A stretch of DNA of 64,000 nucleotides from the NCBI RefSeq assembly GCF_011045215.1, contig NZ_CP049201.1; one strand, 5' to 3'. This DNA is from Escherichia coli. GTDB taxonomy: Bacteria > Pseudomonadota > Gammaproteobacteria > Enterobacterales > Enterobacteriaceae. Positions 12,792 through 33,185 of the stretch are shown piece by piece. Positions within the stretch are counted from its first letter, which is position 1. Each line of letters begins with the position of its first letter. The position numbers and the translations under genes were made by a program. A model generated the notes under the pieces. The model worked only from the letters and a program-made list of their open reading frames with translations, did no database searches and was not told where the DNA came from.

Positions 12792-13235
12792 ATGAACGAA
12801 TATGTTTATAGCGCAAGGAATAATGCTTTTTCCCTGTGGATATGATTGATAAATATAAATCAGAGGGATGGGATTTATCAGATGCAAAGGAGGTGAATCA
12901 AAATATTATCAGTGAGTTTATGGCTGAACCGCCACAAGGAAAAATCCGTATTGCCGGAGATGATGGGATGCCTGCGTGGGCAGATATTCCTCCACCCACG
13001 CATGAAGAGCTTATTGAAATTACTGAATCAGAAAGACAGCTACTAATTAACCGGGCCAACGAATACATGAACAGTAAATCTGTGGCCCGGTAAAGCCGCT
13101 ATTGGTCGTCTGAAAGATGATGAACTGGCGCAATATAATTTGTGGCTGGATTATCTGGACGCACTGGAGCTGATCGATACTTCCGGTGCGCCAGATATTG
13201 AATGGCCTACGCCTCCGGCAGTTCAGGCCAGATGA
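12792..13235 (+). pseudogene. tail fibre assembly protein (Tfa) disrupted by two frameshifts
   Basis: N-terminus MNEYVYSARNNAFSLWI* (12792-12845), middle segment in ORF 12836-13093, C-terminus ...AAIGRLKDDELAQYNLWLDYLDALELIDTSGAPDIEWPTPPA in a third frame ending at 13233-13235. Confidence 0.55.
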
Positions 13236-13809: not shown

Positions 13810-14313
13810 GCAGCCCTCACAATATAATTAAAGGCGATGTTACGTGGACGATTTTCATTTGCTGTTGGAACAACATTTGCCGCCGAGAAGTGAACATCTT
13901 GTCGGATTTTTCGGTCATTAGCGTATGTCATAGACACATTGATGTTATTCCGGACTGAGGTACCTCCGTAAAAGCCCCACTCACACTTTGAACATCGACA
14001 ATTGCATTAATTTCGCTGTTTACGCGCAACTGACCAAAACCGCCAGTAATGTTTCGAATAGCATCTCCTTGCGATGAAAGCAGAGTTCGCCCACTATCCA
14101 CACCACGTTCATCATCCCATCCACGAATAAATTCACCGCGTAAATCAGGCAATTTATTTGTCGGGTAAGCCTTTGCCAGTTCCGGGTATTCTTCAGCAGA
14201 AAAAGCCGCACCATTGCATTTCAGCCAGCCTGTTGGCGGAGTGGCTGAAGGCCACGGAACAGGCACCCCAACCCCACATGCTGAGCCTTCTCCCAAACCA
14301 ACGTTTATGAAAA
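13806..14313 (-). pseudogene. alternative tail-fibre variable C-terminal segment (promoterless; joins the constant part after inversion), frameshifted
   Basis: Begins in frame at the right crossover site (...FINVGLGE...); main frame stops at 13928-13930, while the conserved fibre terminus ...EWGFYGGTSVRNNINVSMTYANDRKIRQDVHFSAANVVPTANENRPRNIAFNYIVRAA lies in another frame ending at 13806-13808. Confidence 0.55.
14288..14313. repeat. right crossover site of the Pin-type invertible segment
   Basis: TTCTCCCAAACCAACGTTTATGAAAA; inverted relative to 12386-12411; 55 bp upstream of the invertase start. Confidence 0.7.
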
Positions 14314-14367
14314 TGCAGAAATAACGAGCAAATGGCATCATTCCTGCTTTTGTCAGGGAGATCTACC

Positions 14368-15850
<1,483 letters not shown>

Positions 15851-15930
15851 CTAACCCTTTGAATTTACATAGCGCAAAAAGATACCTTTCCTCATAATGT
15901 GAGCTAATTTTATGTTTCGTTTGATGATCG

Positions 15931-15993
15931 GGTCGGTCTCGAAAACCGGAGTAGGGGCAACTCTACCGGGGTTCAAATCCCCCTCTCTCGCCA
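15931..15993 (+). tRNA. partial tRNA-Ser 3' fragment (serU-like anticodon/T-arm/acceptor 3' strand; pseudo-tRNA, probable prophage att core)
   Basis: GGTCTCGAAAACCGGAGTAGGGGCAACTCTACCGGGGTTCAAATCCCCCTCTCTCGCCA matches the 3' two-thirds of tRNA-Ser as recalled; the 5' acceptor/D-arm is absent. Confidence 0.6.
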
Positions 15994-16571
15994 CTTTATC
16001 AATGACTTATCTCCCGACTTCCCGTCTTGCTTTTCCTAAACAGAACAATCGTAGAATATTCTTGAAGGGTTAGATCGTCACTGTTTTCTGTTCGATACTG
16101 TGACATTCAGCACTTGATTCGCTATGGATCTGACAGGAAGGTTTTGAGCGAAAATCTGCAGTTATTCAGTCGTTTTCTTATCGGTCACCATTATTCTTTT
16201 AGACATTGATCCTACAAAGCTGCCGCAAAGTTGGTGGTGGGAACTGAAGTTGCGTAGAGAAGGGGTCAATACCCGGAGGCAAACATGGGCTGGCAAAAGT
16301 GTAGCGGTATTAGGCGCAGCTATTTAGCCTAGTTATGTTTTATGAAAACTTGATATCATATAAGTGTCTTACTTATTGGCTGTAAATAAGTTTTTCTAAG
16401 GAATTGTTTCTTGAGTATCATTTGTAACTGTAACGGAATTTATAATCCTTTGCTTTATTGTTACGGTATTTTTATCACACCCTATTTTTAGTGGTTTTTA
16501 TACTGAAGTTTGGCAAAGTGAACTTTATATACATATACTTCATCCTGTTTCAGTTAAATTGGGTGGATGAT

Positions 16572-17315
16572 ATGGCAACTACATGTTCAGTTATATTGAT
16601 TTTGGAGTCCTTTGATGTTTATTTCGGAAAAGAGAGTGTGTTTCTGGAGAGAGGTTCATCTGTACTTGTCGACTCTAGCTCTAGAGATTTTTTCCTGACA
16701 TATCCTGAAAGAGTGATAGTGGCGGATTTTGGCGCTGAGTTTATTAGTCGCTATTTGAAAGCTAATAACTTAAGGGATATTTCTGATTGTAGGGAATATC
16801 CATCTTATTTAAAAATAAACTTTGCTGACTTCAGTTTAATTAAAGGATTAATTAGTTGGGCTAATCACTGTGCTGAATACATAGAAATTTTTGATGAGTC
16901 TATTGCTTTTACATGTCTCTCTGCATTTTCTTCTGAAAAACAATTTGGAGTATTTCTGTTTGGATGTTTGAAAAGCACAGGGGCTAAAGTTAAAACGATT
17001 ATTCATACGGATTTATCTGCACCATGGCGTCTTAAGGATATATCATCAAGATTATATCTCAGCGAAAGTTTACTAAAGAGGAAATTGAAAGAAGAGGGGG
17101 TATCATTCAGTAAGATCATACTTGATGAGAGGATGCAAATGGCTGAATATTTACTCAGCACTCGTTGTTATCCTATTAGTAAAGTAGCTAAGGTCTGTGG
17201 TTATGCCAGTGTCTCATACTTTACTTATGTATTTAGACGTTATTTTGGTGTTTCTCCAAGTCAATACTCTCAGAGGAGTTCAGAAAGTAAAATTCTTACT
17301 CACCAGGGAATCTGA
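16572..17315 (+). CDS. AraC-family transcriptional regulator (AppY/EnvY/Rns-like)
   Basis: C-terminal HTH ...ISKVAKVCGYASVSYFTYVFRRYFGVSPSQY; N-terminus MATTCSVILILESFD aligns with the AppY start MDYVCSVVFICQSFD; AT-rich gene; the first 38 codons of track ORF 16458 are rejected. Confidence 0.8.
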   Translation: MATTCSVILILESFDVYFGKESVFLERGSSVLVDSSSRDFFLTYPERVIVADFGAEFISRYLKANNLRDISDCREYPSYLKINFADFSLIKGLISWANHCAEYIEIFDESIAFTCLSAFSSEKQFGVFLFGCLKSTGAKVKTIIHTDLSAPWRLKDISSRLYLSESLLKRKLKEEGVSFSKIILDERMQMAEYLLSTRCYPISKVAKVCGYASVSYFTYVFRRYFGVSPSQYSQRSSESKILTHQGI

Positions 17316-17321
17316 TCATTG

Positions 17322-17790
17322 TTCTTGCCCCCTTATTTCCAGACAGGGGGTGTATCTTAAGTTAACGTTACCCGCTGACGTCGATATTCTCGCGGAGAGC
17401 GATAACCCAACGCACTGTGCGGATGGTTTTCATTGTAATGTTCGATCGCCACTGCAAGATTATGCAATGCCGTTCTTACATTCGGTTTCGGCATGAACGC
17501 GATGTAGTCTTCCTTCATCGTTTTCACGAACCTTTCTGCAATTCCATTACTCTGAGGACTGCTGATTGCCGTTGTGCAGGGCTCCAGATTCAACTCTCTG
17601 GCGAACTGCCGTGTTTCATGCGCTCTATACGCTGAACCGTTATCTGTCAGCCACTGGATGGACTGTTCCGGTACTTTATCGCCAAAGCGTTTTTCTATCG
17701 CTCCTAACATGACATCCTGCACTGTCGCTTTATCGTAACCTCCCGTGCTTGCGGCCCAGTCTATGGCTTCACGATCGCAACAGTCCAGGG
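17322..17790 (-). mobile_element. IS2 remnant (terminal inverted repeat plus 3' part of the transposase gene; truncated)
   Basis: TTGCCCCCTTATTTCCAGACA end sequence at about 17326-17350; ORF 17357-17722 encodes an IS3-family integrase-core C-terminus (...[17 protein letters not shown]...); only about 0.45 kb of a 1.3-kb element is present. Right boundary is approximate. Confidence 0.55.
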
Positions 17791-18069
17791 CGATTCATCT
17801 GGGCCAATCCTCGCTCATAACAGGCATTCACTTCAGTCATGGCAGAAAGGTATGCATGCTGGAGAAGTCGTGAAAGAAAAGAAGACTGCTGCGCCGTTTG
17901 TCGTCACGTTTATCTTCATTGGCTATGCAAGTCGTAATACAAGGTGGGACAAAACTGAGACACATAAGGCCTCGCAATGGCTTGCAAGGCTTTACATGTT
18001 TTGATGTGGTGGGACGTGTGAGCGCAGTGTTGATGGGGTAATGCTTTGAATTAGAAGCGGATTCTTATA

Positions 18070-18115
18070 ATTCGTAATGCGAAGGTCGTAGGTTCGACTC
18101 CTATTATCGGCACCA
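18070..18115 (+). tRNA. partial tRNA-Thr (thrW) 3' fragment (pseudo-tRNA / att core)
   Basis: ATTCGTAATGCGAAGGTCGTAGGTTCGACTCCTATTATCGGCACCA equals the 3' 46 nt of thrW as recalled; the 5' half is replaced by unrelated sequence. Confidence 0.7.
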
Positions 18116-18280
18116 TTTCAACGTCTTTTCCCGTCTATTAAAATCCAAAAAACCCGCATATACTCTAGCTTTGAGCGCCCCCGATAGTGTTTTAACGTCT
18201 ATCAATATCTCCTAAAATCCACGTCTTTTGGGGGTATATTCGGGGGTATATGCTGTGTGGGCTACTGGAGATACCCCCAA

Positions 18281-19471
18281 ATGAAACTAAATGCCCGTCA
18301 GGTCGATACGGCCAAACCGAAAGAAAAACCCTATAAACTGGCCGATGGTGGTGGGCTTTATCTGCTTGTTAATCCCAATGGTTCCCGGTACTGGCGTTTA
18401 AAGTACCGGGTAGCCGGAAAAGAAAAGCTGTTGGCGCTGGGGGTATATCCCGATGTAACCCTGGCTGATGCCAGGGCGAAACGAGATGAGGCCAAAAGGG
18501 GTATGGCTGGGGGGATCGACCCGAACGAAGCGAAGCGGGAAGAAAAATTGAACCGCGAAGCGCAAATCAAAAACACCTTCGAAGAAATCGCCAGAGAGTG
18601 GCATACAGAACGGCAGAAGAAATGGTCTGAGGGGTACGCCTCGGACATTCTGGAAGCATTCAGTAAAGACATATTCCCTTGGATTGGAAAACGCCCCATC
18701 ACGGAAATAAAGCCCCTTGATTTGCTGAATACGCTTAAACGCATCGAGAATAGGGGAGCGACTGAAAAGGCCCGTAAGGTTCGCCAGTGGTGCGGGGAGG
18801 TCTGGAAGTATGCGATCGTTACCGCCCGCGCAGAATATAACCCCGCCCCTGATCTATCTGTGGCTATGGAAGGACACGAAGGGGAGCACTTCCCCCATCT
18901 GGAAGCCGAAGAGTTACCCGAATTTTTCCAGACGCTGGCGACGGCAAAAAGTAACGTTCAGGTTATTTTGGGGCTGCGTCTGCTTATTCTTGTGGGGTTA
19001 CGTCCGGTTGAATTACGCGCGGCCCCGTGGTCAGAGATTGATTTTGATAATGCCTTGTGGGAGATCCCCAAAGAGCGAATGAAGAAAAGACGTCCGCACG
19101 TTGTCCCGCTTTCTCGCCAGGCTATGGTTATTCTCGGGCAATTAAAAGAGTTGTCGGGCCGCAATCCTTTCATTTTTCCGGGCCGGAACGACCCGCGAAA
19201 GCCAATGAGTGAAGGAGCAATTAATCAGCTAATAAAGCGACTCGGGTATAAGGGCAAAGCTTGCGGGCATGGTTTCCGACATACCATGAGCACAATTTTG
19301 TATGAGAAAGGGTATAACACCGAATGGATCGAAACCCAGCTTGCACATGTTGATAAAAATACCATCCGTGGCACATATAATCATGCCCGCTATCTGGATG
19401 GACGCCGGGAAATGCTTCAATGGTATGCCGACTATATGGAATCGCTGGCGAGTGGCAGGGTAAAAGATTAG
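18281..19471 (+). CDS. P4-type tyrosine integrase
   Basis: MKLNARQVDTAKPKEKPYKLADGGGLYLLVNPNGSRYWRLKYR... is the canonical P4/CP4 integrase N-terminus; C-terminal HxxR...Y catalytic region present; lies 165 bp after the thrW fragment. Confidence 0.9.
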   Translation: MKLNARQVDTAKPKEKPYKLADGGGLYLLVNPNGSRYWRLKYRVAGKEKLLALGVYPDVTLADARAKRDEAKRGMAGGIDPNEAKREEKLNREAQIKNTFEEIAREWHTERQKKWSEGYASDILEAFSKDIFPWIGKRPITEIKPLDLLNTLKRIENRGATEKARKVRQWCGEVWKYAIVTARAEYNPAPDLSVAMEGHEGEHFPHLEAEELPEFFQTLATAKSNVQVILGLRLLILVGLRPVELRAAPWSEIDFDNALWEIPKERMKKRRPHVVPLSRQAMVILGQLKELSGRNPFIFPGRNDPRKPMSEGAINQLIKRLGYKGKACGHGFRHTMSTILYEKGYNTEWIETQLAHVDKNTIRGTYNHARYLDGRREMLQWYADYMESLASGRVKD

Positions 19472-19511
19472 AGAAGGTCTAAGACGGGAATACCGCTAAA
19501 TTAGATGTTAG

Positions 19512-19547
19512 GCGTGGACACTCAGCATCCACGCTTAAACTTTTTAT
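19512..19547 (+). terminator. rho-independent terminator of the integrase gene
   Basis: GCGTGGA-(9 nt)-TCCACGC hairpin followed by a T-rich tract (TTAAACTTTTTATT). Confidence 0.6.
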
Positions 19548-20041
19548 TATCATTTTCAATGAATTATGATTTTGGAAATTTTATAAAAAACACCAAGATT
19601 ACTAATCTATTGATTAATATGAAATATTTCTTTTTTTGATTATTAATTGTGCTCTTGATTGTTGTTTTTATGGTGTTAATTTATAAAAATCTTATTTATA
19701 GGAATTAACATTATATAGTTGGCACTTTTTGCTAAAATCTGTTTTTATTGTGTTTTATTTTTATTTCATTTTTGTTGTTGTTTGTTTGATTTTTAGTGTC
19801 TTTATATCTGGCTAATTGATTTCACTCAAACCATAAATCCTTTCAGAGGCTTCTAGAGTCTTCCTGAGGCTTAAATTGACTTAACTAAAAGTCAAGCCCC
19901 ACATCCCACATACATCTTTTTGACATGCACTTATGGCGTGAATAACAATGACTTCATCCAATCTACAGGCATCCTATAAAGTCAATGTCTGTATATAGAA
20001 AGATATTACATAACGTTTGAATGTTAATAGCGGGTGTGAAT

Positions 20042-20260
20042 ATGAGAAATGATGCAATGCAGCTTTTAAACCAGGGAAAAAGATTGATCCGCCTGCCTGA
20101 AGTTATGATGCTTACGGGGCGGTGTCGCGCCAGTATTTATAAAGATATCAATGCAAATGTCTTTCCAAAGCCGATTAAAACCGGCCCGCGTTCTGTCGCA
20201 TGGGTTGAGGGTGAGATCAGCGACTGGATCGACAACAAAATCAAAGAGCGCAAAGTGTAA
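20042..20260 (+). CDS. alpA: AlpA-family phage regulatory protein (excisionase-like)
   Basis: ...RLIRLPEVMMLTGRCRASIYKDINANVFPKPIKTGPRSVAWVEGEISDWI... matches the AlpA pattern; start is ambiguous (20042 or 20057). Confidence 0.75.
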   Translation: MRNDAMQLLNQGKRLIRLPEVMMLTGRCRASIYKDINANVFPKPIKTGPRSVAWVEGEISDWIDNKIKERKV

Positions 20261-20459
20261 ATCTGATTTTATTCAGAGATGAATATGATTTATTTGAATG
20301 CTAAGGATTTTGTGTATTCTTTTTGTTGTAAATACTCGTAGCATGGGGAGTTGGCAGTATTTATTCAGTATTAGGTTAAGTAGTGATAAAATACCAGGTA
20401 ATGCCGGTTTATGCAGTGTTTAATATATTTGTTGCTGGCGAAAATTTACGGAAAATTAA

Positions 20460-21332
20460 ATGAACATTACTGATATTATCAGCCATCGCGTATATCGTGA
20501 TGCGGATCTTGCTGTCATTAATAACACGGCATTTATTCAGCCTTATGACGGTTGTCACCGTGGGTTGTATGAAATGCGCGTTATTGAACTTTATCGCCTG
20601 AATAAAATGATGCACCTTACCCACGAATATAAATCTATTTCCGGGGAAAGCGTAGGCATTCCGGCGACTAAAGAGGAACTGTTTACACTGGTTAATAAAG
20701 GGCATGAACTTTGCCAGTCTGAACGGGAAAAGCTGGCGGCACTTGAAGCAGAATTGCAGCGTCTGCCAAGCCCGGCTGTAATTCCTGCGCCGCAGACGAT
20801 TAAAGAAGCACAGCAGGCCCGTAAATCACTAGAAGATGAAAGATACAGACTGCATCACGCAGCAATTAAAAATCAAGTCAAAGCACAGCAGGAAGAGTTA
20901 TCCATCAGACAAAACATTCTGGAATTGCTCGCGCCGGTTATTGATGTGTTGTTGGCCGTGGAAGATGTGGAACTGCTCGATCTGCGCCGTTCCCTGCCTA
21001 AGTCATCCCTCGATGCTAAGGCATTCAAAAAGGCGATTTCTGAAATTGAGTGTGCTGACCTTGCCTGGCAGAAAATGGATAAACTGGAGATTGCCCTTAA
21101 CAAGGTGGTGAACAACTGCACATATCGCCCGGAAGGAAGCATTAATCCCCGTTTTGTTAACCCTCTTAATGAAGATAAGCGGGAACGCGCCGAAATATCA
21201 CGCGATTATTACAGCTCTGAAATGGCCTTTATTCATACGGTGATGAGTGCAGATGAATATTTAAATTATATGTTGCCGATCCGTCACCAGCAGCGCGCGC
21301 AACGACTCACATTAGAAAGAAATATCAACTAA
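20460..21332 (+). CDS. hypothetical coiled-coil protein (possible capsid scaffold / size-determination factor)
   Basis: 290 aa with a long Gln/Glu/Leu-rich heptad-like central region; immediately upstream of, and on the same strand as, the capsid-like gene. Confidence 0.45.
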   Translation: MNITDIISHRVYRDADLAVINNTAFIQPYDGCHRGLYEMRVIELYRLNKMMHLTHEYKSISGESVGIPATKEELFTLVNKGHELCQSEREKLAALEAELQRLPSPAVIPAPQTIKEAQQARKSLEDERYRLHHAAIKNQVKAQQEELSIRQNILELLAPVIDVLLAVEDVELLDLRRSLPKSSLDAKAFKKAISEIECADLAWQKMDKLEIALNKVVNNCTYRPEGSINPRFVNPLNEDKRERAEISRDYYSSEMAFIHTVMSADEYLNYMLPIRHQQRAQRLTLERNIN

Positions 21333-21341
21333 GGAAGAATT

Positions 21342-22349
21342 ATGTCTTATGTAACACCAGATTATTTAACGCAGTATCACGAAAACCTGATTAAGTCTTT
21401 TAATATTAAATATAAAAACGAAGATACGGGGTATTTCACCATATCACAGCCGGAAAAAGCATCTCCGGATGCATGGGGATGTTCCACGCTTGATGTTAAA
21501 GGCTCGTCCTGGCTGATTGATAATATTTCATTACTGGACATTATCGGTGCGGATGGCACGACGATCACCATCGGTGATGGTTCCCTTTATACAGGCCGTG
21601 CAAAGGAAGGTCGCTTTCATAAGAAACTAAAAACCAACGGAACACCTTTTTTATTATCAGAAACGGATTCCTGCGCCTCATTGACTTATGAAGAAATGGC
21701 GGTAATGGCAAACGCGAAAAATTTCAGTAATGAAATGATCATTTTTTTCAAGAAGGCCGTGGTGCGGGATATGCTCCGTATTGGATTTAACGGCAAGATG
21801 ATTGCCGAAAATACCAACCCGGAACAATATAAAAACGGCGAAGATATCAATATTGGCTGGCACTCGCTGGCAAAAACATTCAATAACGGTTCACAAATTA
21901 TTTCTGATGCTTTCGCACTGGGGAAAGGCGGTGATTTTGCCGATGTTCACGATCTGGCTGATTGCCTCATCACGTCAAAAATCCCCGAAGGTCAGCGCGA
22001 AGATCCGGGCCTTGTGGTGATGGTTGGCGCGCAACTTGCCGCCCGCGAACGACTGAAACTGTTCAACATGGCCGATCAACCACTGACGCTGACGGCGGGG
22101 GATATGCTGACAAGCAGTGTCGCCGGTCGCTTTGCTTTTATCCCGCCGTTTATGCCGGGTAAGCGCCTGGCTGTTACGACGCTGAAAAATTTGCAGATCC
22201 TGACGCTGAAACACAGCCAACGCTACCGCGCGGAGGATATCCCGCAACGAGGTGTTTATGAGCATGGCTATTTACGTGAGGAAGGTTACGCGCTGGGGGA
22301 TGGCTATCTTTACGCGGCCAGCGATGAGAACGCCGTAACGCTGGTTTAA
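21342..22349 (+). CDS. P2 GpN-family major capsid protein homologue
   Basis: Segment LGKGGDFADVHDLADCLITSKIPEGQREDPGLVVMVGAQLAA parallels P2 gpN VGKGGDYASLDALVMDATNNLIEPWYQEDPDLVVIVGRQLLA (recalled from memory); FNGKM... also parallels gpN FNGVK... Confidence 0.6.
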   Translation: MSYVTPDYLTQYHENLIKSFNIKYKNEDTGYFTISQPEKASPDAWGCSTLDVKGSSWLIDNISLLDIIGADGTTITIGDGSLYTGRAKEGRFHKKLKTNGTPFLLSETDSCASLTYEEMAVMANAKNFSNEMIIFFKKAVVRDMLRIGFNGKMIAENTNPEQYKNGEDINIGWHSLAKTFNNGSQIISDAFALGKGGDFADVHDLADCLITSKIPEGQREDPGLVVMVGAQLAARERLKLFNMADQPLTLTAGDMLTSSVAGRFAFIPPFMPGKRLAVTTLKNLQILTLKHSQRYRAEDIPQRGVYEHGYLREEGYALGDGYLYAASDENAVTLV

Positions 22350-22561
22350 GTATCGAGTACAGCCAGCTTTGACAGTGATGGCCAGATAAAAGAAAACCCT
22401 CTCACCGGAACGAACAAGAAACGATAAGAGGGTTTATCAGGAAGATGATTCTACGTGATGAATTATACCGAGAAACAACCGATGCTTACCAGCAAAAACG
22501 CGTCACTGTTTGTGCAGCTGGCACCGTCCGATCTGACGGTGTTTTCCGGAATGGTAAGGAG

Positions 22562-22753
22562 CTATTCCTTTGCCTTTTTGCGCTGTTCTGCTTTCAGCTT
22601 GCGCCCGCAGGCATCCAGCACCCAAGCGGAAAAACTTGAACCCGGATTATCGACTTTTTCGCGTTCTACGCAGGCATCAATTTCTGCGATCATTTCATGC
22701 GGGAAGCGTATTCCCTTGTATGTTGTTTTGCTGTTTATGTGGTTTTTAGTCAT
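22562..22753 (-). CDS. putative small DNA-binding regulator (ribbon-helix-helix-like), about 63 aa
   Basis: MTKNHINSKTTYKGIRFPHEMIAEIDACVEREKV... has RHH-like strand-helix character; divergent from the downstream operon with operators between; start codon uncertain (M15/M24/M33 of the track ORF). Confidence 0.45.
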   Translation of the reverse strand: MTKNHINSKTTYKGIRFPHEMIAEIDACVEREKVDNPGSSFSAWVLDACGRKLKAEQRKKAKE

Positions 22754-22769
22754 GCTGGAAACTCTTAAG

Positions 22770-22870
22770 TGTTTAAACATCAGTAAAGATACAGTAAAGC
22801 CGGACATAACAAAACTGTTTAAACAAAATCTGTTGACTTGTTTAAACACTCAGCATAATGTGTTTAAACA
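22770..22870. promoter_or_regulatory. operator array: four copies of the palindrome TGTTTAAACA within divergent promoters
   Basis: Exact copies at 22770-22779, 22816-22825, 22839-22848 and 22861-22870; TTGACT (22833-22838) and CATAAT (22854-22859) hexamers interleave with the right-hand pair. Confidence 0.6.
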
Positions 22871-22960
22871 GTTTGCTACGTTGCAAACTGAAAAAACGAA
22901 GCCCGGCAGTGTTGACGCACTAACCGGGCCTCTGACCAACACGTTATTAGGAGTAACGCT

Positions 22961-23164
22961 ATGGCTAGCCATCAGTGTAACCAAACTCGCCCTAAAAATC
23001 GCCTATTTCTCTTTCTCGCGGTATCACGGGCCGACATGCAGGACAAACCACACCGCGAACAAATCACCGCGTACAGCGAACAGGAAGCCCGTTCCATGCT
23101 GGCCGGTCGCTTTATCCTCTGCTTTGCTGGCCGTCTGCCGGTTCAGGAGGTGCACCATGTTTAA
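22961..23164 (+). CDS. hypothetical protein (67 aa), first gene of the coupled operon
   Basis: AGGAG 7-8 nt upstream of the ATG; stop overlaps the next start (ATGTTTAA). Confidence 0.4.
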   Translation: MASHQCNQTRPKNRLFLFLAVSRADMQDKPHREQITAYSEQEARSMLAGRFILCFAGRLPVQEVHHV

Positions 23165-23405
23165 CCCACTGGACAACCGCAAAGCGGCGGCGCTTAACCC
23201 GTTCCACGATGACTGTTACGATCCGCCAGCCTTTATTAAACCGGGTTCAAAAGTAGTGGTTGAAATTGATTCCCGGGAAATGGAGGTCGCTATTCTAGCC
23301 GCTTATGACTACGGACTGGACGCGCTGAACGACGATGGCCGGGAAGAGCTTAACCGCTTAATTGCTGACCTGAAAGACAAGATAACGGAGGCGCGGTATG
23401 CATAA
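23158..23405 (+). CDS. hypothetical protein (82 aa)
   Basis: Strong SD (caGGAGGtg) before the ATG at 23158; acidic protein; the rest of track ORF 22455-23405 is rejected. Confidence 0.55.
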
Positions 23406-23823
23406 TCTGCTTAATTCACCGTTGCCAGTGTCTATGGATCTCTTTCAGGCTGGCGAGATGTGCGGGCATTTTGTCGCGCGGTTAACGGATGAAAGTTGTG
23501 TTGACGAGACTGAACGCGTCGCACTTTGCGGACGTCTGGCTTTTGCCCTGCGTTCTCTTTCATCTCTTTGTGATACAGACTATCCATCGCATATCCAGGC
23601 GCAATTAACCGCGACTGCTATTCCTGCTCCCTGCGTACCTGATGAGTGGATCGACGCGACGATCATGACGGGCTATTGCACCGCCTTAAATGATGCGCTG
23701 CTTAGTCGCTCCCTTCGTATGGACGTTGAAACACAATTACGCTGGCTTTTGCATGACATGATTAATTTACTTGTCAGATATCTGAAACAGCCTTGTATTA
23801 AGGCGGGAGTAGATCATGTCTGA
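23398..23823 (+). CDS. hypothetical protein (141 aa)
   Basis: Start overlaps the previous stop by 8 nt; Cys-containing; no known motif. Confidence 0.55.
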   Translation: MHNLLNSPLPVSMDLFQAGEMCGHFVARLTDESCVDETERVALCGRLAFALRSLSSLCDTDYPSHIQAQLTATAIPAPCVPDEWIDATIMTGYCTALNDALLSRSLRMDVETQLRWLLHDMINLLVRYLKQPCIKAGVDHV

Positions 23824-24214
23824 AATTATGCTCACACCGTTTCACGTTGACCGCCATTTTTACGATCTGGTTTACGGTGCTTCATTTTTTGCGGATGCAT
23901 TACCTGCAATGAATGATATCAAGCAGCAGCGGCTTTATTGTCGATTATTGCAATTAAATCTGGTTGTTTTATTTGAAAAACGGTCGCGGGATATTCCCCC
24001 AATTCAGTCGAGTAAAATAAAAATCGCTGATGAGGTTATATTTCTTAATGTCGATAATATTTATCATGCGCTTTCCCTGACTGCCGGGCTGATAAGTCAG
24101 GATATCAGTAAGGGGATGGAAAAAGAACTGGCTGAATATATCAGGGATATTATTAGTATTATTTTTAATGAAATGCGAATGCAGATGGTTGATTATGATC
24201 CATATGAAATGTGA
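23816..24214 (+). CDS. hypothetical protein (132 aa), AT-rich gene
   Basis: Start overlaps the previous stop by 8 nt; composition shifts to AT-rich. Confidence 0.5.
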   Translation: MSEIMLTPFHVDRHFYDLVYGASFFADALPAMNDIKQQRLYCRLLQLNLVVLFEKRSRDIPPIQSSKIKIADEVIFLNVDNIYHALSLTAGLISQDISKGMEKELAEYIRDIISIIFNEMRMQMVDYDPYEM

Positions 24215-24310
24215 GACGAATAAAACAATAATCGATTTATAAGAACTGAAAAATATTTAATTATAACCGTATTTTAACGGGGGATAATTACGCCCCTGTA
24301 AGGAAAATAT

Positions 24311-24580
24311 ATGTCTGATTTGAATACCATTGCTGTTAATAGTGCTGAAAAATATCTTAGCCTTGAGTGCTTCCATAAACTCAACCGCGCAAGGAATGTT
24401 TCATTCCAGATGCATTTACAGATCCGTCAGTGTGAGATAAACGGCCTGCCACTTTTATGGATTCCAGATATTTTCAGCTATATCAGCGAAGACATATCCG
24501 CCGTTCTGGAAGAAGCCAAAGTACTTGGCCTTTGCGATAAGTTCACAGGCGAAGCCCGGATCGGTCAGGTCAGTCTTTAA
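24311..24580 (+). CDS. hypothetical protein (89 aa)
   Basis: Same strand, between the coupled operon and the primase gene. Confidence 0.45.
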   Translation: MSDLNTIAVNSAEKYLSLECFHKLNRARNVSFQMHLQIRQCEINGLPLLWIPDIFSYISEDISAVLEEAKVLGLCDKFTGEARIGQVSL

Positions 24581-24643
24581 TTTTTTGTATTCCGCGCCGC
24601 CCGCTGCGGCGCATTGTCTTACCCATTAATAAAGGTCATACCG

Positions 24644-27376
24644 ATGCAAGGTAAAAAAGTTTCACAGACAGCAGGACGCGCGGCGGGCCAGTGGGAAAAT
24701 ATTCTTGAACACCTGGGGATTACTGTTCCTGCGGGTGGTCTTCATGGCCCCTGCCCGATCTGCGGCGGTAAAGATCGTTTTCGCTTTGATAATAAAAAAG
24801 GGCGTGGAACCTGGTTCTGCAACCAGTGCGGCCACGGTGACGGGCTGGATCTGGTCAAACTGGCGCTTTCGCTGGACACCGGGCCAGCCGCTGATCGAGT
24901 TGCTGAATTACTTCCGGCCCTTCCTCCGCCTGCGGTCATGCAGCCTGCCAGAAAAGAAGCCAGTGACGAAGGTCGCCCACATGACTACTGGCAACGCCTC
25001 TTTGCCCGTACTCAGCCGGGGGAAAGCCCTTACCTTACGGCGCGGGGGCTGACAGGTTTTGAACTGCCGCTGACCGTTCAGGAGATGAAAACCGCTGGCG
25101 GTGTTTTTCCGGCTGGTTCGCTTTTATTACCGATCACGGACACCGAAGGACGGATGACCGGTGCACAGCTTATCGGCCCGGACAAGGTAAAAGGCTTATG
25201 TGCTGGCACCAGGAAAAAAGGGCGTTTTATCTCTGTCGGGCCGTTCCCGGAGAAAATGCCCGCGCGGATCATTATCTCGGAAGGCTTTGCCACTGCGTTA
25301 AGCGCATCCCTGCTTTCAGAGGGCTGGAGTATTGCGGCGCTGGATAAAGGCAACCTGAAAGACGTTGCGGAGCAAATCCGCCAGAAATGGCCGGACGTGC
25401 AGATCGTTATTGCCGGTGATAATGACTTTTCTGACGGTAAACCCAATCAGGGGAAAGAGTCTGCGATCAAAGCTGCACTGGCCGTTAAGGGATGGATGAC
25501 CATTCCTCCCGGACGGATCAAAGTTGACTGGGATGATTACCGCCGTGAATTTGGCCTCCAGCGCGCCCGTGACGCATTCGCGGAAGAACTGCTTAACCCG
25601 GCAGACACCGAAACGCGTTTACCGCATGGTTTCCGCCTGACGAAGGATTATCTTTGGTTTGATCGCCCGCTCAGTGACGGTAGCGAAAGCGGCCAGACTC
25701 GCCAGGTGAAGATATGTAGCCCGCTCAAAGTGACGGCCATCACCAGCGACGGCGAAGGCGGTAAATTCGGGCGTCTGCTTGAGTGGGAAGACTCCAGCGG
25801 ATTACGGCATGAATGGGCGATGCCAATGACAGTGCTTGCCGGAAGCGGTCAGGAGCTGCGGGAGGTTCTGCTTGATAACGGAATGCACTTTATCAGCGTG
25901 AACGGCGCGGCGCGTAGCTATCTGATGGAATACATTTCTAACTGTCGCCCGGTTCGCCGCGTCACCTGCGTTGAAAAAACAGGCTGGTTTAGCGGTGCGT
26001 ATGTTCTCCAGGATGAGGTGATCGGCAGCGATGCCGGATCGGTCATCCTCCAGTCTGCTATGTCGTCTAAAAATGACTTCCGGGTGAGCGGAACGGTGGC
26101 GGAATGGGCGCAACACGTCGGGCGCTATTGTGCCGGAAATTCCCGCCTGGTGTTCTGCGTCAGTCTGGCGCTGGCCGCGCCGTTACTGAATATTATTGGT
26201 GTTGGCGGCGGCGGTTATCACCTTAAGGGCGAATCCACGGACGGCAAGACAACCACAATGAAGGTAGCGGCGTCTGTCTGCGGCGGGCCTGATTTCTGGA
26301 AAACGTGGCGGGCAACCGGAAACGCGCTGGAAGGTATTGCGCTACGCCGTAATGATGCCGCCCTGATGCTGGATGAAATCAGCGAAGTTGACGGCAGAGA
26401 GGCTAGCCGGATCGCCTATATGCTGGGGAACGGGCAGGGCAAAGCAAGGGGGCGCGTTGATGGCAGCGTCCGCGATCCGGTGACCTGGACATTGCTTTAC
26501 CTGTCCACCGGGGAAATCTCTATTGCGGAACATGCCGCCGAAGCCGGAGAAAAGCGAACCGGCGCGGGTGTCGGTGTGCGTATGGTGCAAATCCCCAGCG
26601 ATACCGGAAAACATGGCGCTTTCGAAAATCTCCACGGCATGGAAGGCGGTAAAGCGTTTGCGGAATACCTTGAACAGACCTGTAAACAATATTACGGCGC
26701 GCCGTTCCGCGAATGGTTGCGCTGGCTGGCGGCAAATCTGACGGAAACCGCGAACCGGGCGCGGGCAATGAAAAAAGAGTATGAACGGACATTATTACCC
26801 GAAGATTCCGGCAAGCAGGTTGGGCGCATTGTGGATCGCTTTGCACTGTTGGCCGTTGCGGGGGAACTGGCGAGTGAAGCGGGGATCACAGGCTGGCAAC
26901 CAGGAGAAGCGTATAACGCTGCAAGAAGCTGTCTGGCGGCATGGCTTAACGATCGTGGACATGCGGCCAACCAGGAAGAAGCCGACGCGCTGGAGAAGGT
27001 GCGGCGCTTTATTACGGCCAATCAGTACACACGCTTTGCTGACTGGTATGACGAGAAAAACCGCCCGTCAAATATGGTTGGCTTTCGCCGGGTGGAGAAA
27101 GGCGGGAACGGTATTGGCATGAGCAAAAAGGAGAACAGCGGCGATACTGTTAAAGACGGGGACGCCACTAAAGAGCCGGAAACCACATTTTATATCCTGC
27201 CCAGCGGATGGAAGGAAATTTGCGGGACGTCGGACAGCGTTAAAACGGCGAGACTATGCGACGAGGCTGGATGGCTTGTAAAGGATGAAGATCGCCAGCG
27301 CCTACAACGTACAGTAAGACTACCGGAAATTGGCTTAAAGAAAGTGTATGTGTTCAGCGGCGAAGTGATCGGATAA
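24644..27376 (+). CDS. P4 alpha-type DNA primase/helicase (zinc-binding, Toprim and P-loop helicase domains)
   Basis: CPICGGKDRFRF...WFCNQCGHGDG zinc motif; Toprim-like IISEGFATALSA...IAGDNDF; Walker-type region further downstream; true start ATG 24644 (the track ORF begins at a TTG). Confidence 0.9.
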   Translation: MQGKKVSQTAGRAAGQWENILEHLGITVPAGGLHGPCPICGGKDRFRFDNKKGRGTWFCNQCGHGDGLDLVKLALSLDTGPAADRVAELLPALPPPAVMQPARKEASDEGRPHDYWQRLFARTQPGESPYLTARGLTGFELPLTVQEMKTAGGVFPAGSLLLPITDTEGRMTGAQLIGPDKVKGLCAGTRKKGRFISVGPFPEKMPARIIISEGFATALSASLLSEGWSIAALDKGNLKDVAEQIRQKWPDVQIVIAGDNDFSDGKPNQGKESAIKAALAVKGWMTIPPGRIKVDWDDYRREFGLQRARDAFAEELLNPADTETRLPHGFRLTKDYLWFDRPLSDGSESGQTRQVKICSPLKVTAITSDGEGGKFGRLLEWEDSSGLRHEWAMPMTVLAGSGQELREVLLDNGMHFISVNGAARSYLMEYISNCRPVRRVTCVEKTGWFSGAYVLQDEVIGSDAGSVILQSAMSSKNDFRVSGTVAEWAQHVGRYCAGNSRLVFCVSLALAAPLLNIIGVGGGGYHLKGESTDGKTTTMKVAASVCGGPDFWKTWRATGNALEGIALRRNDAALMLDEISEVDGREASRIAYMLGNGQGKARGRVDGSVRDPVTWTLLYLSTGEISIAEHAAEAGEKRTGAGVGVRMVQIPSDTGKHGAFENLHGMEGGKAFAEYLEQTCKQYYGAPFREWLRWLAANLTETANRARAMKKEYERTLLPEDSGKQVGRIVDRFALLAVAGELASEAGITGWQPGEAYNAARSCLAAWLNDRGHAANQEEADALEKVRRFITANQYTRFADWYDEKNRPSNMVGFRRVEKGGNGIGMSKKENSGDTVKDGDATKEPETTFYILPSGWKEICGTSDSVKTARLCDEAGWLVKDEDRQRLQRTVRLPEIGLKKVYVFSGEVIG

Positions 27377-27419
27377 GACCTGCTGACACCGCTATAACTA
27401 ACGGTGTTGGCCAGCTTCC

Positions 27420-27700
27420 GGCCCTGGAAACATAGCCAGCCAGGAAGAAGTGATCGCACGTATCATATTTTTTAGTGGAAACAGTGGGAACATAGGGAAC
27501 AGACTTGATTTATAAAGGTTTTATTTGTTCCCAATTACTGTTCCCATATGGTAACAGGTGGTAATGTATTTTAAATCATATGGTTATGTTGATATGCAAA
27601 GCGTTGTTCCCAGTTGTAAAAGAGAGATGGGAACAGGAAAAAGGTATAAATATCAACACTGTTACCATTGTTCCCACTGTTTCCACCATTTTTGACAATA
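27420..27700. repeat. iteron cluster (GGGAACA / TGTTCCC heptamers), putative replication origin or cis replication region
   Basis: At least 7 exact copies in both orientations plus variants (GGAAACA, TGTTACC, TGTTTCC) within about 280 bp directly after the primase gene; resembles P4 ori/crr TGTTCACC iterons. Confidence 0.55.
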
Positions 27701-27724
27701 ACAATATTTAATTTCGGGGAAAAT

Positions 27725-27741
27725 GCTTTTCCCTGGCTGGC
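27725..27741. repeat. 17-bp direct repeat, left copy (GCTTTTCCCTGGCTGGC)
   Basis: Exact copy of 30005-30021; lies 20 bp upstream of the P2-like integrase start. Confidence 0.5.
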
Positions 27742-27760
27742 TAACATCAAAGGTAAAGAA

Positions 27761-28726
27761 ATGAGCATTAAGAAACGTCCTGATGGAAAATGGCTGGTAG
27801 ATATGCGGCCCGCAGGTCGTAAAGGAAAACGTATTCGCAGGGTTTTTAACAGGAAATCGGAGGCCCTGGCATTTGAGATGTATTACCTGGTCCGTTCTCA
27901 ATCGCCGGAATGGGCAACGAACTTCACAGACCGCAGATTATTAAGCGATTTGCGTAAAACATGGTGGGACCTGTTTGGACACGCCAGAAATAACGCAGAA
28001 ACTGAAAAGCGCCAGCTTGATAAAACCATCCGGCAGATGGGAGATCCACCAGTTAACCGGCTTACAATCCGCTTCATTCTGGAATTCAGAGCAGGCCGTG
28101 TTTCAGGGAAATTAAAGGCATCCACGATAAATCGCGATATGTACCGGTTATCAGGCATGTTTACCGAATTAATTAAAGCAGGTGAGTGTAAAAATAATCC
28201 GTTCCGTAGTCTTGAACCGTTAAAGGAAGAACCTTCCGCAGTAACGTTTCTGACCCACGAAGAAATTAGCATGTTACTGGAAAAACTGGAGGGAGATTCG
28301 CGTAAGCTGGCGTTACTGTGTCTTAATACTGGGGCGCGTTTCAGTGAAGCCGCGAATCTAACGGCTGAAATGGTTAACAACCGTCGTGTAACGTTTATTA
28401 AGACAAAGAACGGGAAGCAGCGGACAATACCCATTTCATCTGAACTCGAAAAGGAAATAAAAACAAAAAATTCAGGTCAACTTTTCACGGTGGATTATAA
28501 ATGGTTTTCCCGCAGGTTGAAGGCAATCAAACCGGATTTACCGGATGGACAGGCAACGCATGTATTACGACATACTTTCGCCAGTCATTTCATTATGAAT
28601 GGGGGAAATATTGTTGTATTAAAAGAGATTCTTGGACATGCCAATATTCAGCAAACTATGATTTATGCACACTTTGCGCCTGAATTTCTGGCGCAGGCTG
28701 TAACATTGAATCCATTTAGTAAGTAA
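27761..28726 (+). CDS. P2-like tyrosine integrase
   Basis: MSIKKRPDGKWLVDMRPAGRKGKRIRRVFNRKSEALAFE... parallels P2 Int MAIKKLDDGRYEVDIRPTGRNGKRIRRKFDKKSEAVAFE (from memory); C-terminal HxLRHTFASHF...Y region present. Confidence 0.85.
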   Translation: MSIKKRPDGKWLVDMRPAGRKGKRIRRVFNRKSEALAFEMYYLVRSQSPEWATNFTDRRLLSDLRKTWWDLFGHARNNAETEKRQLDKTIRQMGDPPVNRLTIRFILEFRAGRVSGKLKASTINRDMYRLSGMFTELIKAGECKNNPFRSLEPLKEEPSAVTFLTHEEISMLLEKLEGDSRKLALLCLNTGARFSEAANLTAEMVNNRRVTFIKTKNGKQRTIPISSELEKEIKTKNSGQLFTVDYKWFSRRLKAIKPDLPDGQATHVLRHTFASHFIMNGGNIVVLKEILGHANIQQTMIYAHFAPEFLAQAVTLNPFSK

Positions 28727-28754
28727 CTGCGGATTTTCTTTTGAATGTACAAAA

Positions 28755-29012
28755 CTAACGTTGAAGTAATTCTTTCATGACCGTTTTTTGTTCCGGCGTC
28801 ATCATGTCAATCATTGTTTTTACTGCTTTATCCCCAGTCAGAGCGCTGGGGCTTAGCGTATGGGAGAACGTCATATTCATAACGAAGGTATGCCCACATT
28901 CAACATTATTACAGGCACAATACATATCAGACAGGTGGGGATGCTTGCGCACTGTCTTTTTTGTTGTTGAATTACTTCCACACTCAGGACAAACAATTTT
29001 ATGGCTGCGCAT
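28755..29012 (-). CDS. Ogr/Delta-family zinc-finger transcriptional activator
   Basis: CPECGSNSTTKKTVRKHPHLSDMYCACNNVECGHTF: a CxxC...CxxxxC zinc finger typical of P2 Ogr / P4 Delta; convergent with the integrase, 28 bp apart. Confidence 0.8.
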   Translation of the reverse strand: MRSHKIVCPECGSNSTTKKTVRKHPHLSDMYCACNNVECGHTFVMNMTFSHTLSPSALTGDKAVKTMIDMMTPEQKTVMKELLQR

Positions 29013-29430
29013 AATAATCACCACTCGTAAAAGGCGCATTATTATACCACTATTTGCATTAAACAAAAAAAAGAAATTGATATAAATTATCAATAATATC
29101 ATCGTGTTATGTCATTCCATTCTTTCTTTGCTTTTAACTTAGTGTCACGCAATTTGATTTTTTTTGTTTTAATTTTCATATGGTTACGTTATTTTGATTA
29201 AAGATTGAATTTTACGATGACTGTAATTATTGAAATCCTTTTCAACTGATTGCATTTTTTTCAGTCTCAAATTTCATGTAAAACCCCGTTTAACGCCTGT
29301 TCTGGCGCTTCTTTCCTGCAATTTTCCAAACTGAAAAAATTCTCACTACGTAAACACCGTGGGCGTGCGGGTGAGCGCGGTTTTGGTCCCGCTGGCGTTT
29401 GCGTCGTAACAAGTCAGAAACATACAACCA

Positions 29431-29452
29431 CATGTACAACTAGCTGTACATA
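29431..29452. promoter_or_regulatory. putative YefM-type operator (paired TGTACA hexamers)
   Basis: caTGTACAactagcTGTACAta lies 45 bp upstream of the antitoxin start. Confidence 0.45.
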
Positions 29453-29495
29453 TGCAATACTTACGACGTAATAACTTGGCGGACGGAAAAACACT

Positions 29496-29741
29496 ATGCA
29501 ACACGTAAACTATACCGATGCTCGACAGCATTTAGCTGACCTGATGCAGCAGGCTAATGATGATCGTGCGCCAATCCTGGTTACGCGTAAGGGTGCTAAA
29601 AGCGTAGTAATGATCGATGCGGAAGAGTTCGCATCGATTCAGGAAACGTTACACCTGTTCAGTAACCCGGCGAACGCCGCACACATTGAAGCCAGCCTTG
29701 CATCGCTCGAACGCGGCGATTATGAGGAACTGGACATTTAA
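29496..29741 (+). CDS. type II antitoxin, Phd/YefM family
   Basis: 81 aa; ...RAPILVTRKGAKSVVMIDAEEFASIQETLHLFSNPANAAHI... matches the YefM pattern; 1-nt overlap with the toxin gene. Confidence 0.85.
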   Translation: MQHVNYTDARQHLADLMQQANDDRAPILVTRKGAKSVVMIDAEEFASIQETLHLFSNPANAAHIEASLASLERGDYEELDI

Positions 29742-30001
29742 TGAAAGTCAGGATATCCCCGCAGGCAAAAGGCGATCTTCAGTACTGGGCTGAGAATGAC
29801 CCAAAGACGTATAACAAGGTAATGGAGCTAATCAAATCGGCTAAGGAAAGCCCCTTCAAGGGGATAGGGAAGCCGGAGGCGCTAAAGCATCGTAAGCCGC
29901 TTTGGTCACGTCGAATCACGAAAGAACATCGCCTGGTGTATTACGTTGAGCAAGGCGATCTGTACATTGTTGCGTGTCGCTATCACTACACCACGATTTA
30001 A
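29741..30001 (+). CDS. type II toxin, YoeB/Txe family mRNA interferase
   Basis: 86 aa; ...GIGKPEALKHRKPLWSRRITKEHRLVYYVEQGDLYIVACRYHY is the conserved YoeB C-terminus. Confidence 0.85.
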   Translation: MKVRISPQAKGDLQYWAENDPKTYNKVMELIKSAKESPFKGIGKPEALKHRKPLWSRRITKEHRLVYYVEQGDLYIVACRYHYTTI

Positions 30002-30004
30002 ACA

Positions 30005-30021
30005 GCTTTTCCCTGGCTGGC
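30005..30021. repeat. 17-bp direct repeat, right copy (GCTTTTCCCTGGCTGGC)
   Basis: Exact copy of 27725-27741; begins 4 bp after the yoeB-like stop. Confidence 0.5.
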
Positions 30022-30320
30022 GGGTTTACCTTAACTTTGCCAGCACTGTTTAAACGCCCGCCGCTCTCTCCCAAATACAGTATAAAAAGCAATCAATTAT
30101 TGTGGACGTAAAAGCGCATGGGGGTACAATTGGGGGTACGTTGGTTATCCATTATGTAATAAATTCATAATAAACATGGTGTTATATTGCATGTTTAACT
30201 CTTATTATCTACCCCATATTCAAATACACCACGTTTCCTCCTGTGCCGTATTTATGCCATTGTAACCCTGGCAATTAATCAAAATACTGTTCTGACATCA
30301 GGCAATGCAGGTGCAGACAT

Positions 30321-31220
30321 TTAAGCCAATTGCTGCCGCCATTCCTTAACGTGGTCAATCAGAGCGCGGAGCTTTGGTGCAATATTGCGACGCTGTGGGA
30401 AATACAGATAGAAGCCCGGAAATTGTGGAAGAAAGTCATCAAGCAGAGATACAAGCTTACCGCTTTCAATATATGGCCTGAAAGTTTCCTGAGTGGCAAT
30501 TGTTATTCCTCCGCCGGCAAGAGCCAGCCTCAACATCAGACGCAGATCATTAGTCGTAATCTGTGGTTCAATCGCAAGGTCGAAAGCTCTCCCGTTTTCT
30601 TCAAATGGCCAGCGATAAGGCGCAACATCCGGGGATTGACGCCAGCCGATACACTTATGATTCACAAGTTCACGCGGATGAACAGGTGTGCTGTTGGCTG
30701 CGAGATAGGAGGGAGAGGCAACGACCATTTCACGCTGACTGCCGGTAAGGGGCACAGCAATCATGTCTTTTTCAATGACCTCTCCGAGCCTTACGCCAGC
30801 ATCGTAACCTGCGGCCACGATATCGAATTCCTCATCCGTGACAACAATATCAAGCGTAACGGCTGGATTGGCTGCTGCAAACGAAGCGATTAGCGGACCT
30901 GAAAGAAATTCTTCAGCTATTGACGTCACTGCGATTCTGAGAAGTCCACGTGGTACATGATCAGAAACCATCTCTTCGAACGCTGTCTCAATACCGGATA
31001 AAGGTAATGACAGCGATTTATGCAGCCGTTCTCCTGCTTCTGTCAAATTAACTGAGCGCGTGGTCCGCATTACAAGCATTGTCCCGAATGCATCTTCAAG
31101 GCGTCTTATTCCCTGACTGACCGCTGAACGGGTAACGCCCAGCCGTGCGGCGGCTTTACTGAAATTACTCTCTTCTGCTACCGCGATAAAAATGGGTAAA
31201 AGATTAAGATCGATTTTCAT
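30321..31220 (-). CDS. LysR-family transcriptional regulator
   Basis: 299 aa; N-terminal HTH (...FSKAAARLGVTRSAVSQGIRRLE...) and LysR substrate-binding region; divergent from the SDR gene. Confidence 0.85.
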   Translation of the reverse strand: MKIDLNLLPIFIAVAEESNFSKAAARLGVTRSAVSQGIRRLEDAFGTMLVMRTTRSVNLTEAGERLHKSLSLPLSGIETAFEEMVSDHVPRGLLRIAVTSIAEEFLSGPLIASFAAANPAVTLDIVVTDEEFDIVAAGYDAGVRLGEVIEKDMIAVPLTGSQREMVVASPSYLAANSTPVHPRELVNHKCIGWRQSPDVAPYRWPFEENGRAFDLAIEPQITTNDLRLMLRLALAGGGITIATQETFRPYIESGKLVSLLDDFLPQFPGFYLYFPQRRNIAPKLRALIDHVKEWRQQLA

Positions 31221-32769: not shown

Positions 32770-32842
32770 TCAGACAGAAATGGTTAAATCGTCGAATTCA
32801 TATTTAATACGTTTTCTTACGCCGCTGAACAGCTTGAAAAGG
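32770..32842 (-). pseudogene. remnant of an rpmJ-paralog (ykgO-like) 3' end
   Basis: Closely similar to the ykgO 3' end and its downstream flank at 51391-51470 (encodes ...AVQRRKKTY* versus ...AVQGRKKKR*); the upstream coding sequence is missing. Confidence 0.45.
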
Positions 32843-32908
32843 ATGCATATTTTAAATATCAGTGAAATGAACAGTTTATTGCCGTTATTAATAGAAATGG
32901 AGGGATAA
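32843..32908 (+). CDS. putative 21-codon small ORF (MHILNISEMNSLLPLLIEMEG), copy A
   Basis: AAAAGG-ATG; conserved with copy B at 52160-52225 inside a 120-bp repeat of about 90% identity. Confidence 0.3.
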   Translation: MHILNISEMNSLLPLLIEMEG

Positions 32909-33185
32909 ATACGCGTATTCTACTGTTGCAACAAAAACAACGATATTGATCGGTTTTCATAATGAAGTAACCTGACAGATATAAAAATGTTGATTGAGGC
33001 TAAATTCCCGGATGAAGGTTGTTGAGGGAGCCAGGTAGTTTTTTCTTTTGGGTGATCTCCATTGCTGGATAGTCCCCTTGTACAGATAAGTCCGCTCTTT
33101 CTCGCTCAAAGCGGCCCCTGGAATTGAACGCAGAGTGACTACCTGACACAATATTGCACAGTGAAGAGTCGGTCGTTGTTAACGT

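Follow-up and report, generated by a model that had tools for sequence, protein, structure and literature searches.

An int2-ogr-yefM-yoeB segment between exact 17-bp repeats in Escherichia coli is likely the right-hand arm of a P4-like satellite at thrW

The described systems closest to the locus analysed here are the P4-like satellites and the integrase end of the P2-like phages. P4-like satellites combine a tyrosine integrase at a tRNA gene, accompanied by GGGGG-type arm repeats, with a primase-helicase that is followed by an iteron cluster beside attP (the crr position), a Delta/Ogr activator, an epsilon-like derepression protein and an AlpA/Vis-type regulator. Variable cargo, including toxin-antitoxin (TA) pairs, occupies fixed backbone positions at their hotspots for accessory or defence genes (Rousset et al. 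2022, PMC9122126; bioRxiv 10.64898/2026.02.27.708500), where rapid local swapping via undefined recombination has been reported (bioRxiv 10.64898/2026.02.27.708500). P4 itself is laid out as alpha, crr, attP and int, with a Psid-sid-delta-psu late operon beside ori and with a cos site. The described P4 hotspot is placed around cos, between int and psu (reference 9 of PMC8628076), and an integrase adjoining the primase-helicase gene alpha is found in less than 1% of P4-like elements (PMC8628076). In P2 and Wphi, a P2-type integrase gene is convergent with an Ogr-family gene (int-attP-ogr). Here we analysed a stretch of 64,000 nt (64 kb) of Escherichia coli DNA (contig NZ_CP049201.1; the window) and in it the segment at 27725-30021, in which a P2-type tyrosine integrase gene (int2), a convergent gene for an Ogr/Delta late-gene activator (ogr) and a yefM-yoeB TA pair lie between two copies of the 17-mer GCTTTTCCCTGGCTGGC. 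A first-pass annotation had read this segment as a nested integrative or addiction cassette ended by the 17-mers. Our comparisons speak against such a cassette; instead, the segment is likely the right-hand arm of a 12-kb P4-like satellite at thrW (approximately 18070-30215) and not a separate nested element. Both 17-mers are, as judged by sequence comparison, instances of a backbone motif, YTTYTTYCCTGGCNGGC, that occupies fixed positions in the satellite clade.

Exact copies of GCTTTTCCCTGGCTGGC were found only at the two ends of the segment (copies L and R), and the window holds no third site at two or fewer mismatches. The identity between L and R stretches to 22 nt with 2 mismatches. The end of L is separated by 19 nt from the ATG of int2, the yoeB stop codon is followed after 3 nt by the start of R, and the four genes are tightly flanked by direct repeats at both ends. 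Coordinates and family searches thus bore out what the first-pass annotation had noted, an exact 17-bp direct repeat that brackets int2, a convergent Ogr/Delta gene and yefM-yoeB. We scanned about fifteen islands for the motif, defined as a pyrimidine run followed by TGGC-N-[GT]GC. Three to four copies per island were present in the lineage of the window and in relatives whose alpha is at least 71% identical (0.04-0.14 in shuffled sequences), while more distant islands, and island L001 with its replaced replication module, had one or two. All copies occupied orthologous positions: one within alpha about 2.4 kb before its end, an inverted one (copy I) about 50-60 nt past the alpha stop codon, L about 340-350 nt past it and, in several lineages, R at 1.7-3.0 kb past it. 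R lies 100-190 bp inside attR and behind a variable cassette in which a Delta/Ogr gene is always present. The copy within alpha occupies the same place in all scanned relatives with an alpha of this type, and it keeps AGA/AGG arginine codons in every alpha gene scanned; the AGA codon is rare in enterobacteria, and this suggests a constraint at the nucleotide level inside the alpha gene.

The cargo enclosed by the pair differs between lineages. In the window and in L006 and L007, L and R are identical at 17 of 17 positions and surround int2 (or its remnant), ogr and yefM-yoeB. In L015 from Intestinirhabdus, with alpha 75% identical, the match is 21 of 21 and the cargo consists of a two-domain delta gene and noncoding DNA, and in L059 it is 14 of 14 around a Psu-family gene and ogr. 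R is diverged in L039/L058 from Buttiauxella, where two Psu-family genes, a 70-aa open reading frame and ogr are enclosed, and also in L060, which carries delta genes and a YafO toxin pair. The recurring pair was observed in E. coli, Salmonella and Intestinirhabdus as well as in the read-archive contig L059. A 22-bp att repeat specific to L015 (the ppiD terminator) marks the limits of that island, whose P2-type int is found at the far end; TGT-N12-ACA late-promoter sites directly follow L in L058 and L059. In P4 itself, the motif occurs at 8725 (inverted) and at 9457 (direct), on either side of the ori iterons and just ahead of Psid. Since the repeat pair surrounds differing cargo and P4 has I- and L-like copies, we regard the pair as a feature of the satellite backbone.

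The satellite that contains the segment is well delimited and is a variant of the known P4-like plan. At its left end, int1 adjoins a 46-nt thrW 3' fragment that ends at 18115 and in which ARAGORN detected no complete tRNA. Arm repeats of the form TGGGGGTA..GGGGGTA are found at 18229 and again at 30119, at both island ends, and homology to the E. coli core genome begins at 30210. Past the thrW fragment, the gene order is int1, an AlpA-type regulator, a 290-aa protein, a P2-family major capsid homologue, a derepression protein and the primase-helicase; the 335-aa capsid homologue lies behind the 290-aa protein, which has no PHROG match, in the interval 20460-22349. As in P4-like satellites, alpha is followed by iterons, here at the place that crr takes in P4, and six of the seven TGGGAACA matches in the window fall inside the cluster at 27460-27700. 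The domains of alpha were assigned by Pfam families on identical or near-identical proteins (the alpha of the window is 100% identical to one E. coli protein, P0189), and PF04606 (Delta/Ogr), PF25738 (epsilon-like derepression) and PF05930 (AlpA/Vis) match the orthologous genes in relatives. The island hence shares with P4 the integrase at a tRNA gene with its arm repeats, the primase-helicase and iterons beside attP, the activator, the derepression protein and the regulator. Unlike P4, it lacks sid and psu and has the capsid homologue and the 290-aa protein instead; no Psu family match was obtained in the window's lineage, whereas L058 and L059 have Psu-family genes after the iterons. Its alpha is of the DUF927 type with 910 aa, and its Delta gene is located between iterons and attP, together with the second integrase and the TA pair. 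No C4/CI immunity RNA was detected either: an Rfam scan of 17000-31000 at E<=1 returned nothing, including RF01695, which scored above the gathering threshold once each in P4, L057 and L061. Like the P4 hotspots, the island carries variable cargo, including a TA pair, at a fixed backbone position, but in contrast to the described P4 hotspot this region lies between the post-alpha iterons and attP and is bordered by a short repeated motif. In a comparison of L001 (16753-20000) with the window (24600-27760), primase and iterons were seen to be swapped between satellites that are otherwise 95-99% identical, with the right junction at the start of int2.

Along its full length, the product of int2 shares 53-60% identity with Int of P2, Wphi, SEN5 and phiT5282H, and its catalytic residues R-K-H-R-H-Y are intact in the alignment; members of its cluster match PF24624 (Int_N) and PF00589. 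The assignment as a P2-like integrase therefore stands. The nearest non-satellite relatives of int2 (73%) belong to a P2-like prophage remnant of Citrobacter, and the same remnant holds the closest phage-type Ogr (75%). Because the nearest non-satellite relatives of both genes share one prophage, int2 and ogr plausibly stem from one helper-like lineage. The first-pass annotation had also recognized the P2 int-attP-ogr arrangement here. The convergent gene pair with its gap of 28 bp is indeed present, but the likeness to P2 and Wphi is superficial: the gap measures 273 bp in Wphi, an attP is absent from the 28 bp directly 3' of int2, and neither a core nor arm-like repeated words were found near int2, whereas the closest phage relatives (L012, L013) show TGTCCAC arm repeats 3' of int. 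In addition, the closest phage Ogr homologues occur in P2-like phages that have ogr beside the portal gene and not beside int. The int2 gene was found in more than 200 contigs, and its dN/dS of 0.07-0.18, at dS up to 0.74, is comparable to that of alpha. As int2 is kept intact under purifying selection, it is functional without an adjacent attP. This pattern fits acquisition from a P2-like phage lineage, loss of the gene's own attP and a function that is independent of an adjacent attP. In L057, which has an intact attP1 and an alpha of 86% identity, the order is alpha, iterons, int2, about 650 bp, ogr, attP1 and int1, without a TA pair; this layout may represent an older state.

The ogr gene at 28755-29012 encodes the sole Ogr/Delta homologue of the island, and in relatives the Delta gene likewise sits in the cassette behind alpha and the iterons. 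Together with the shared prophage kin of int2 and ogr, these observations support the alternative that the first-pass annotation had offered, namely the satellite's own Delta joined by a captured integrase. Going by P4/P2 biology, Delta would turn on the late promoters of helper and satellite. Between ogr and yefM lies a candidate cos; further sites of this cos-like element were located in L015 (11005-11040), L044 (7008-7042) and L058 (12345-12375), and the read-archive contig L057 terminates in it. At the equivalent position, the cos of L058 and L059 is clearly of the P2/P4 type (GGCGAGGCGGGG and GGCGTGGCGGGG). In the window, the P2 cos sequence gave no match at three or fewer mismatches. Right after cos, and behind a TGT-N12-ACA site, the loci L058 (12523-15780) and L059 (8749-11833) contain genes for a P2-type tail assembly chaperone and tape measure, which may be part of the satellite or of a neighbouring prophage remnant.

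As in the chromosomal YefM-YoeB system of E. coli, the two TA genes overlap (the yoeB start with the yefM stop, at position 29741), both score above the cutoffs of their family models, and a TGTACA palindrome lies upstream, which we take to be an operator of the known YefM-YoeB type. The pair differs from the chromosomal one in being satellite-borne and beside attR and in its YefM, which must be a divergent family member as it reaches only 69.9 bits with the YefM equivalog model, below the cutoff of 121 bits. The pair is predicted to be autoregulated and would stabilise the island or its plasmid form. Judged by gene content, addiction or defence cargo recurs in the interval from delta to the island end. 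The YafO-family toxin genes of L060 are found at 10725-11728, and in L061 a Hok gene with sok RNA lies at 10613-10905; both are located between delta and the island end.

If the segment were a nested cassette, int2, ogr and yefM-yoeB would have entered as one unit through Int2, with the 17-mers as attL and attR. The tight bracketing by an exact direct repeat around an intact integrase, the purifying selection on int2 and the fact that the window and L001 cease to be homologous within 15 bp of L all agree with such an entry. We nevertheless consider it very improbable. Close relatives of the satellite at thrW are found in three complete genomes of E. coli and in a number of Salmonella contigs. 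All thrW-family islands sampled have the order alpha, iterons, int2, ogr, yefM, yoeB. In L001 (Eco_24-2013), the module is 95% identical to that of the window and adjoins an unrelated primase and different iterons (GGTTACA), and only R is present. L006 and L007, conversely, have alpha and iterons 97-98% identical to those of the window and both 17-mers exact, yet their int2 is a diverged N-terminal remnant of 182 aa without the catalytic domain. In Salmonella, R is exact and L differs at two positions, in a different manner in two lineages. From these three patterns it follows that L tracks the replication module and not the integrase, in line with its place in the inverted repeat that flanks the iterons and with the similar P4 copy. 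Nor can the condition of the repeats be predicted from that of int2. Repeats made by insertion are expected to be absent or single where the cargo is missing, but L015, L039/L058, L059 and L060, which lack int2 and the TA pair, retain L and also R. None of the sampled islands showed an empty site with L and R joined, or a circle junction, and every island sampled from the lineage has the segment; in viral and metagenome contigs, a degenerate pattern for all four junction types matched nothing but L- and R-type sites. When the whole segment was searched against phage and plasmid collections, similarity was limited to the integrase gene. The divergence of the cargo genes is discordant as well, with dS between the window and L008 of 0.19 for int2 and 0.84 for ogr, and between the window and L010 of 0.74 for int2, 1.00 for ogr, 0.19 for yefM and 0.27 for alpha, so that the cargo was not inherited as one unit. 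Furthermore, the 17-mer is located 5' of int2, whereas a P2-type attP is found, together with arm repeats, 3' of int, and the segment includes the satellite's sole Delta and probable cos. The nested cassette thus fails on the repeats of the relatives, on the junction scans and on the discordant divergence.

Two further explanations concern the repeats themselves. A chance match of two unrelated 17-mers deserves hardly any weight. Taken by itself, the pair is indeed only weakly significant: some exact direct 17-mer pair arose in 12% of mononucleotide shuffles of the window, which also contains two 16-mer pairs without apparent meaning. But the pair sits at orthologous positions across hosts, with three to four motif copies per island where fewer than 0.15 are expected, and it is the reuse of the same two positions in relatives that marks it as real. 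L and R may, on the other hand, be sites or scars of repeated swaps of Delta/accessory cassettes between satellites (a cargo bay), a secondary and non-exclusive explanation in which swaps or gene conversion would account for the L/R identity. We regard this as unlikely, though far less so than nested insertion. The L-R cargo does vary by lineage (delta only; sid/psu/delta; int2/delta/TA; delta/YafO), L=R identity is specific to each island, with the flanks in L015 resembling the R flank and not the orthologous L flank of L060, and the replication-module swap of L001 stops at the L position. Rapid local swapping has, moreover, been reported for P4 hotspots (bioRxiv 10.64898/2026.02.27.708500). 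Mosaic breakpoints between close relatives, however, fall inside the cassette and not at the motif, no motif-specific recombinase was identified, and copy I and the copy within alpha would be left without a role. A length of 17-21 bp is also short for RecA-dependent exchange.

Some points weigh against our own reading of the segment as the right-hand arm of the satellite. The distinct islands sampled represent about ten lineages, a small sample, and no R copy was detected in satellites with alpha 54-60% identical. The identity of L and R within an island exceeds what a shared consensus would lead one to expect (17/17 and 21/21, extending into the flanks in L015), a hint that the copies have recombined or undergone gene conversion, or that the L site has received repeated insertions. 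Int2 may still act on some site within the segment. That the segment holds the satellite's packaging site is probable by the resemblance of the candidate cos alone.

With the segment read as the satellite's right-hand arm, the backbone motif would be arranged as copy I in inverted orientation after alpha, L beyond the iterons and R behind a variable Delta/Ogr cassette near attR. In this island, the cassette would hold the satellite's own Delta, the candidate cos, YefM-YoeB and int2, the latter gained from a P2-like phage lineage, deprived of its attP and retained by purifying selection. The motif itself is most likely a cis element of the replication and late-control region that is bound by a protein. 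A limited literature search found no description of YTTYTTYCCTGGCNGGC as a cis element of P4-family satellites. Among other candidates, base pairing between I and L (as RNA or cruciform) was ruled out as the constraint, since the central N base does not co-vary and, in roughly half of the islands, is non-complementary in the two copies; folding of RNA around the I, L and R copies revealed no shared structure. A sigma-54 or sigma-70 promoter was rejected upon inspection because of unsuited spacing, and a terminator was rejected as an intrinsic terminator precedes R in L058 and L059, whereas none does so in the window. In P4 (L037), the L-like copy at 9457-9475 resembles part of the CI RNA gene (seqB region) at 8460-8485 (CCTCCGGGCTGGCCGGT vs TTTCCTGGCTTGCCGGT), which could be coincidence or shared ancestry.

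Table 1 Features of the thrW satellite and of the 27725-30021 segment (window coordinates)
Feature	Position	Strand	Remarks
Partial thrW 3' segment = attL	18070..18115	+	exact 25-nt thrW 3'-end match at 18091-18115
int1 arm-type repeats TGGGGGTATATTCGGGGGTA	18229-18248		upstream of int1; family common to 30119-30138
int1, P4-type integrase, 404 aa	18257..19471	+	NCBIfam NF007246, phrog_1
alpha-type primase-helicase, 910 aa	24644..27376	+	Zn-ribbon primase, Toprim, DUF927
Motif copy within alpha gene, CTTCTTTTCTGGCAGGC	24943..24959	-	encodes PARKEA on + strand, AGA arginine codon
Copy I	27433..27450	-	inverted, imperfect motif copy, 59 nt past alpha stop codon
Iteron cluster, six TGGGAACA units in 82-nt inverted repeat	27460..27700		directly after alpha
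Copy L (left 17-mer)	27725..27741	+	right arm of inverted repeat around iterons
int2, P2-type tyrosine integrase, 321 aa	27761..28726	+	phrog_1
ogr, Ogr/Delta zinc-finger late-gene activator, 85 aa	28755..29012	-	phrog_603; PF04606 on orthologues
Candidate cos GGGCGTGCGGGTGAGCGCGGTTTT	29355..29385		resembles ~30-nt noncoding element downstream of delta in many relatives
TGTACA-N6-TGTACA palindrome	29433..29450		upstream of yefM
yefM antitoxin, 81 aa	29496..29741	+	TIGR01552, 47.9 bits vs cutoff 20.8
yoeB toxin, 86 aa	29741..30001	+	TIGR02116, 94 bits vs cutoff 51.8
Copy R (right 17-mer)	30005..30021	+	175 bp inside attR core
int1 arm-type repeats TGGGGGTACAATTGGGGGTA	30119..30138	+	attR side; also present in L001
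Degenerate thrW 3' end ACTCTTATTATCTACCCCA, taken as attR core	30197..30215	+	sequence inspection

Beyond the segment, positions 1-18070 of the window are occupied by a contractile-tailed (myovirus) prophage with tail sheath, tape measure and baseplate genes. As this prophage ends at the partial thrW, the satellite stands in tandem behind another thrW-targeting element. Within the satellite, 45 bp at 22506-22550, in the gap between the capsid homologue and a YlcI-like gene, match an intergenic part of the P2-like remnant from Citrobacter (L012/L013, 8897-8941) at 93% identity. The chromosomal part of the window contains a direct repeat of about 110 bp (32840-32950 and 52157-52265, 19.3 kb apart) with exact runs of 22, 35 and 17 nt.

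A nested mobile element would have been notable, but that reading fails, and what remains is a P4-like satellite with variant features: two integrases of different families, a TA pair by attR and a capsid-gene homologue that replaces sid/psu. Two points seem worth following, the conserved motif and the P2-type integrase, which is an orphan yet under selection. We tentatively propose, with more doubt than confidence, that YTTYTTYCCTGGCNGGC is an undescribed cis element of the P4 family, which would couple replication and late functions by looping or mark a cargo bay, and, separately, that Int2 acts in trans on a helper prophage. The element has an inverted motif pair that frames the iterons, a third copy that closes the Delta/late cassette and one more inside alpha, and the attP-less Int2 may, for example, provide a derepressed P2-like prophage with the Int missing from it. 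If functional, the motif would open a way to learn how replication, late transcription and cargo turnover are organised in these satellites, and the orphan integrase leads to the testable idea that a satellite manipulates the integration state of its helper.

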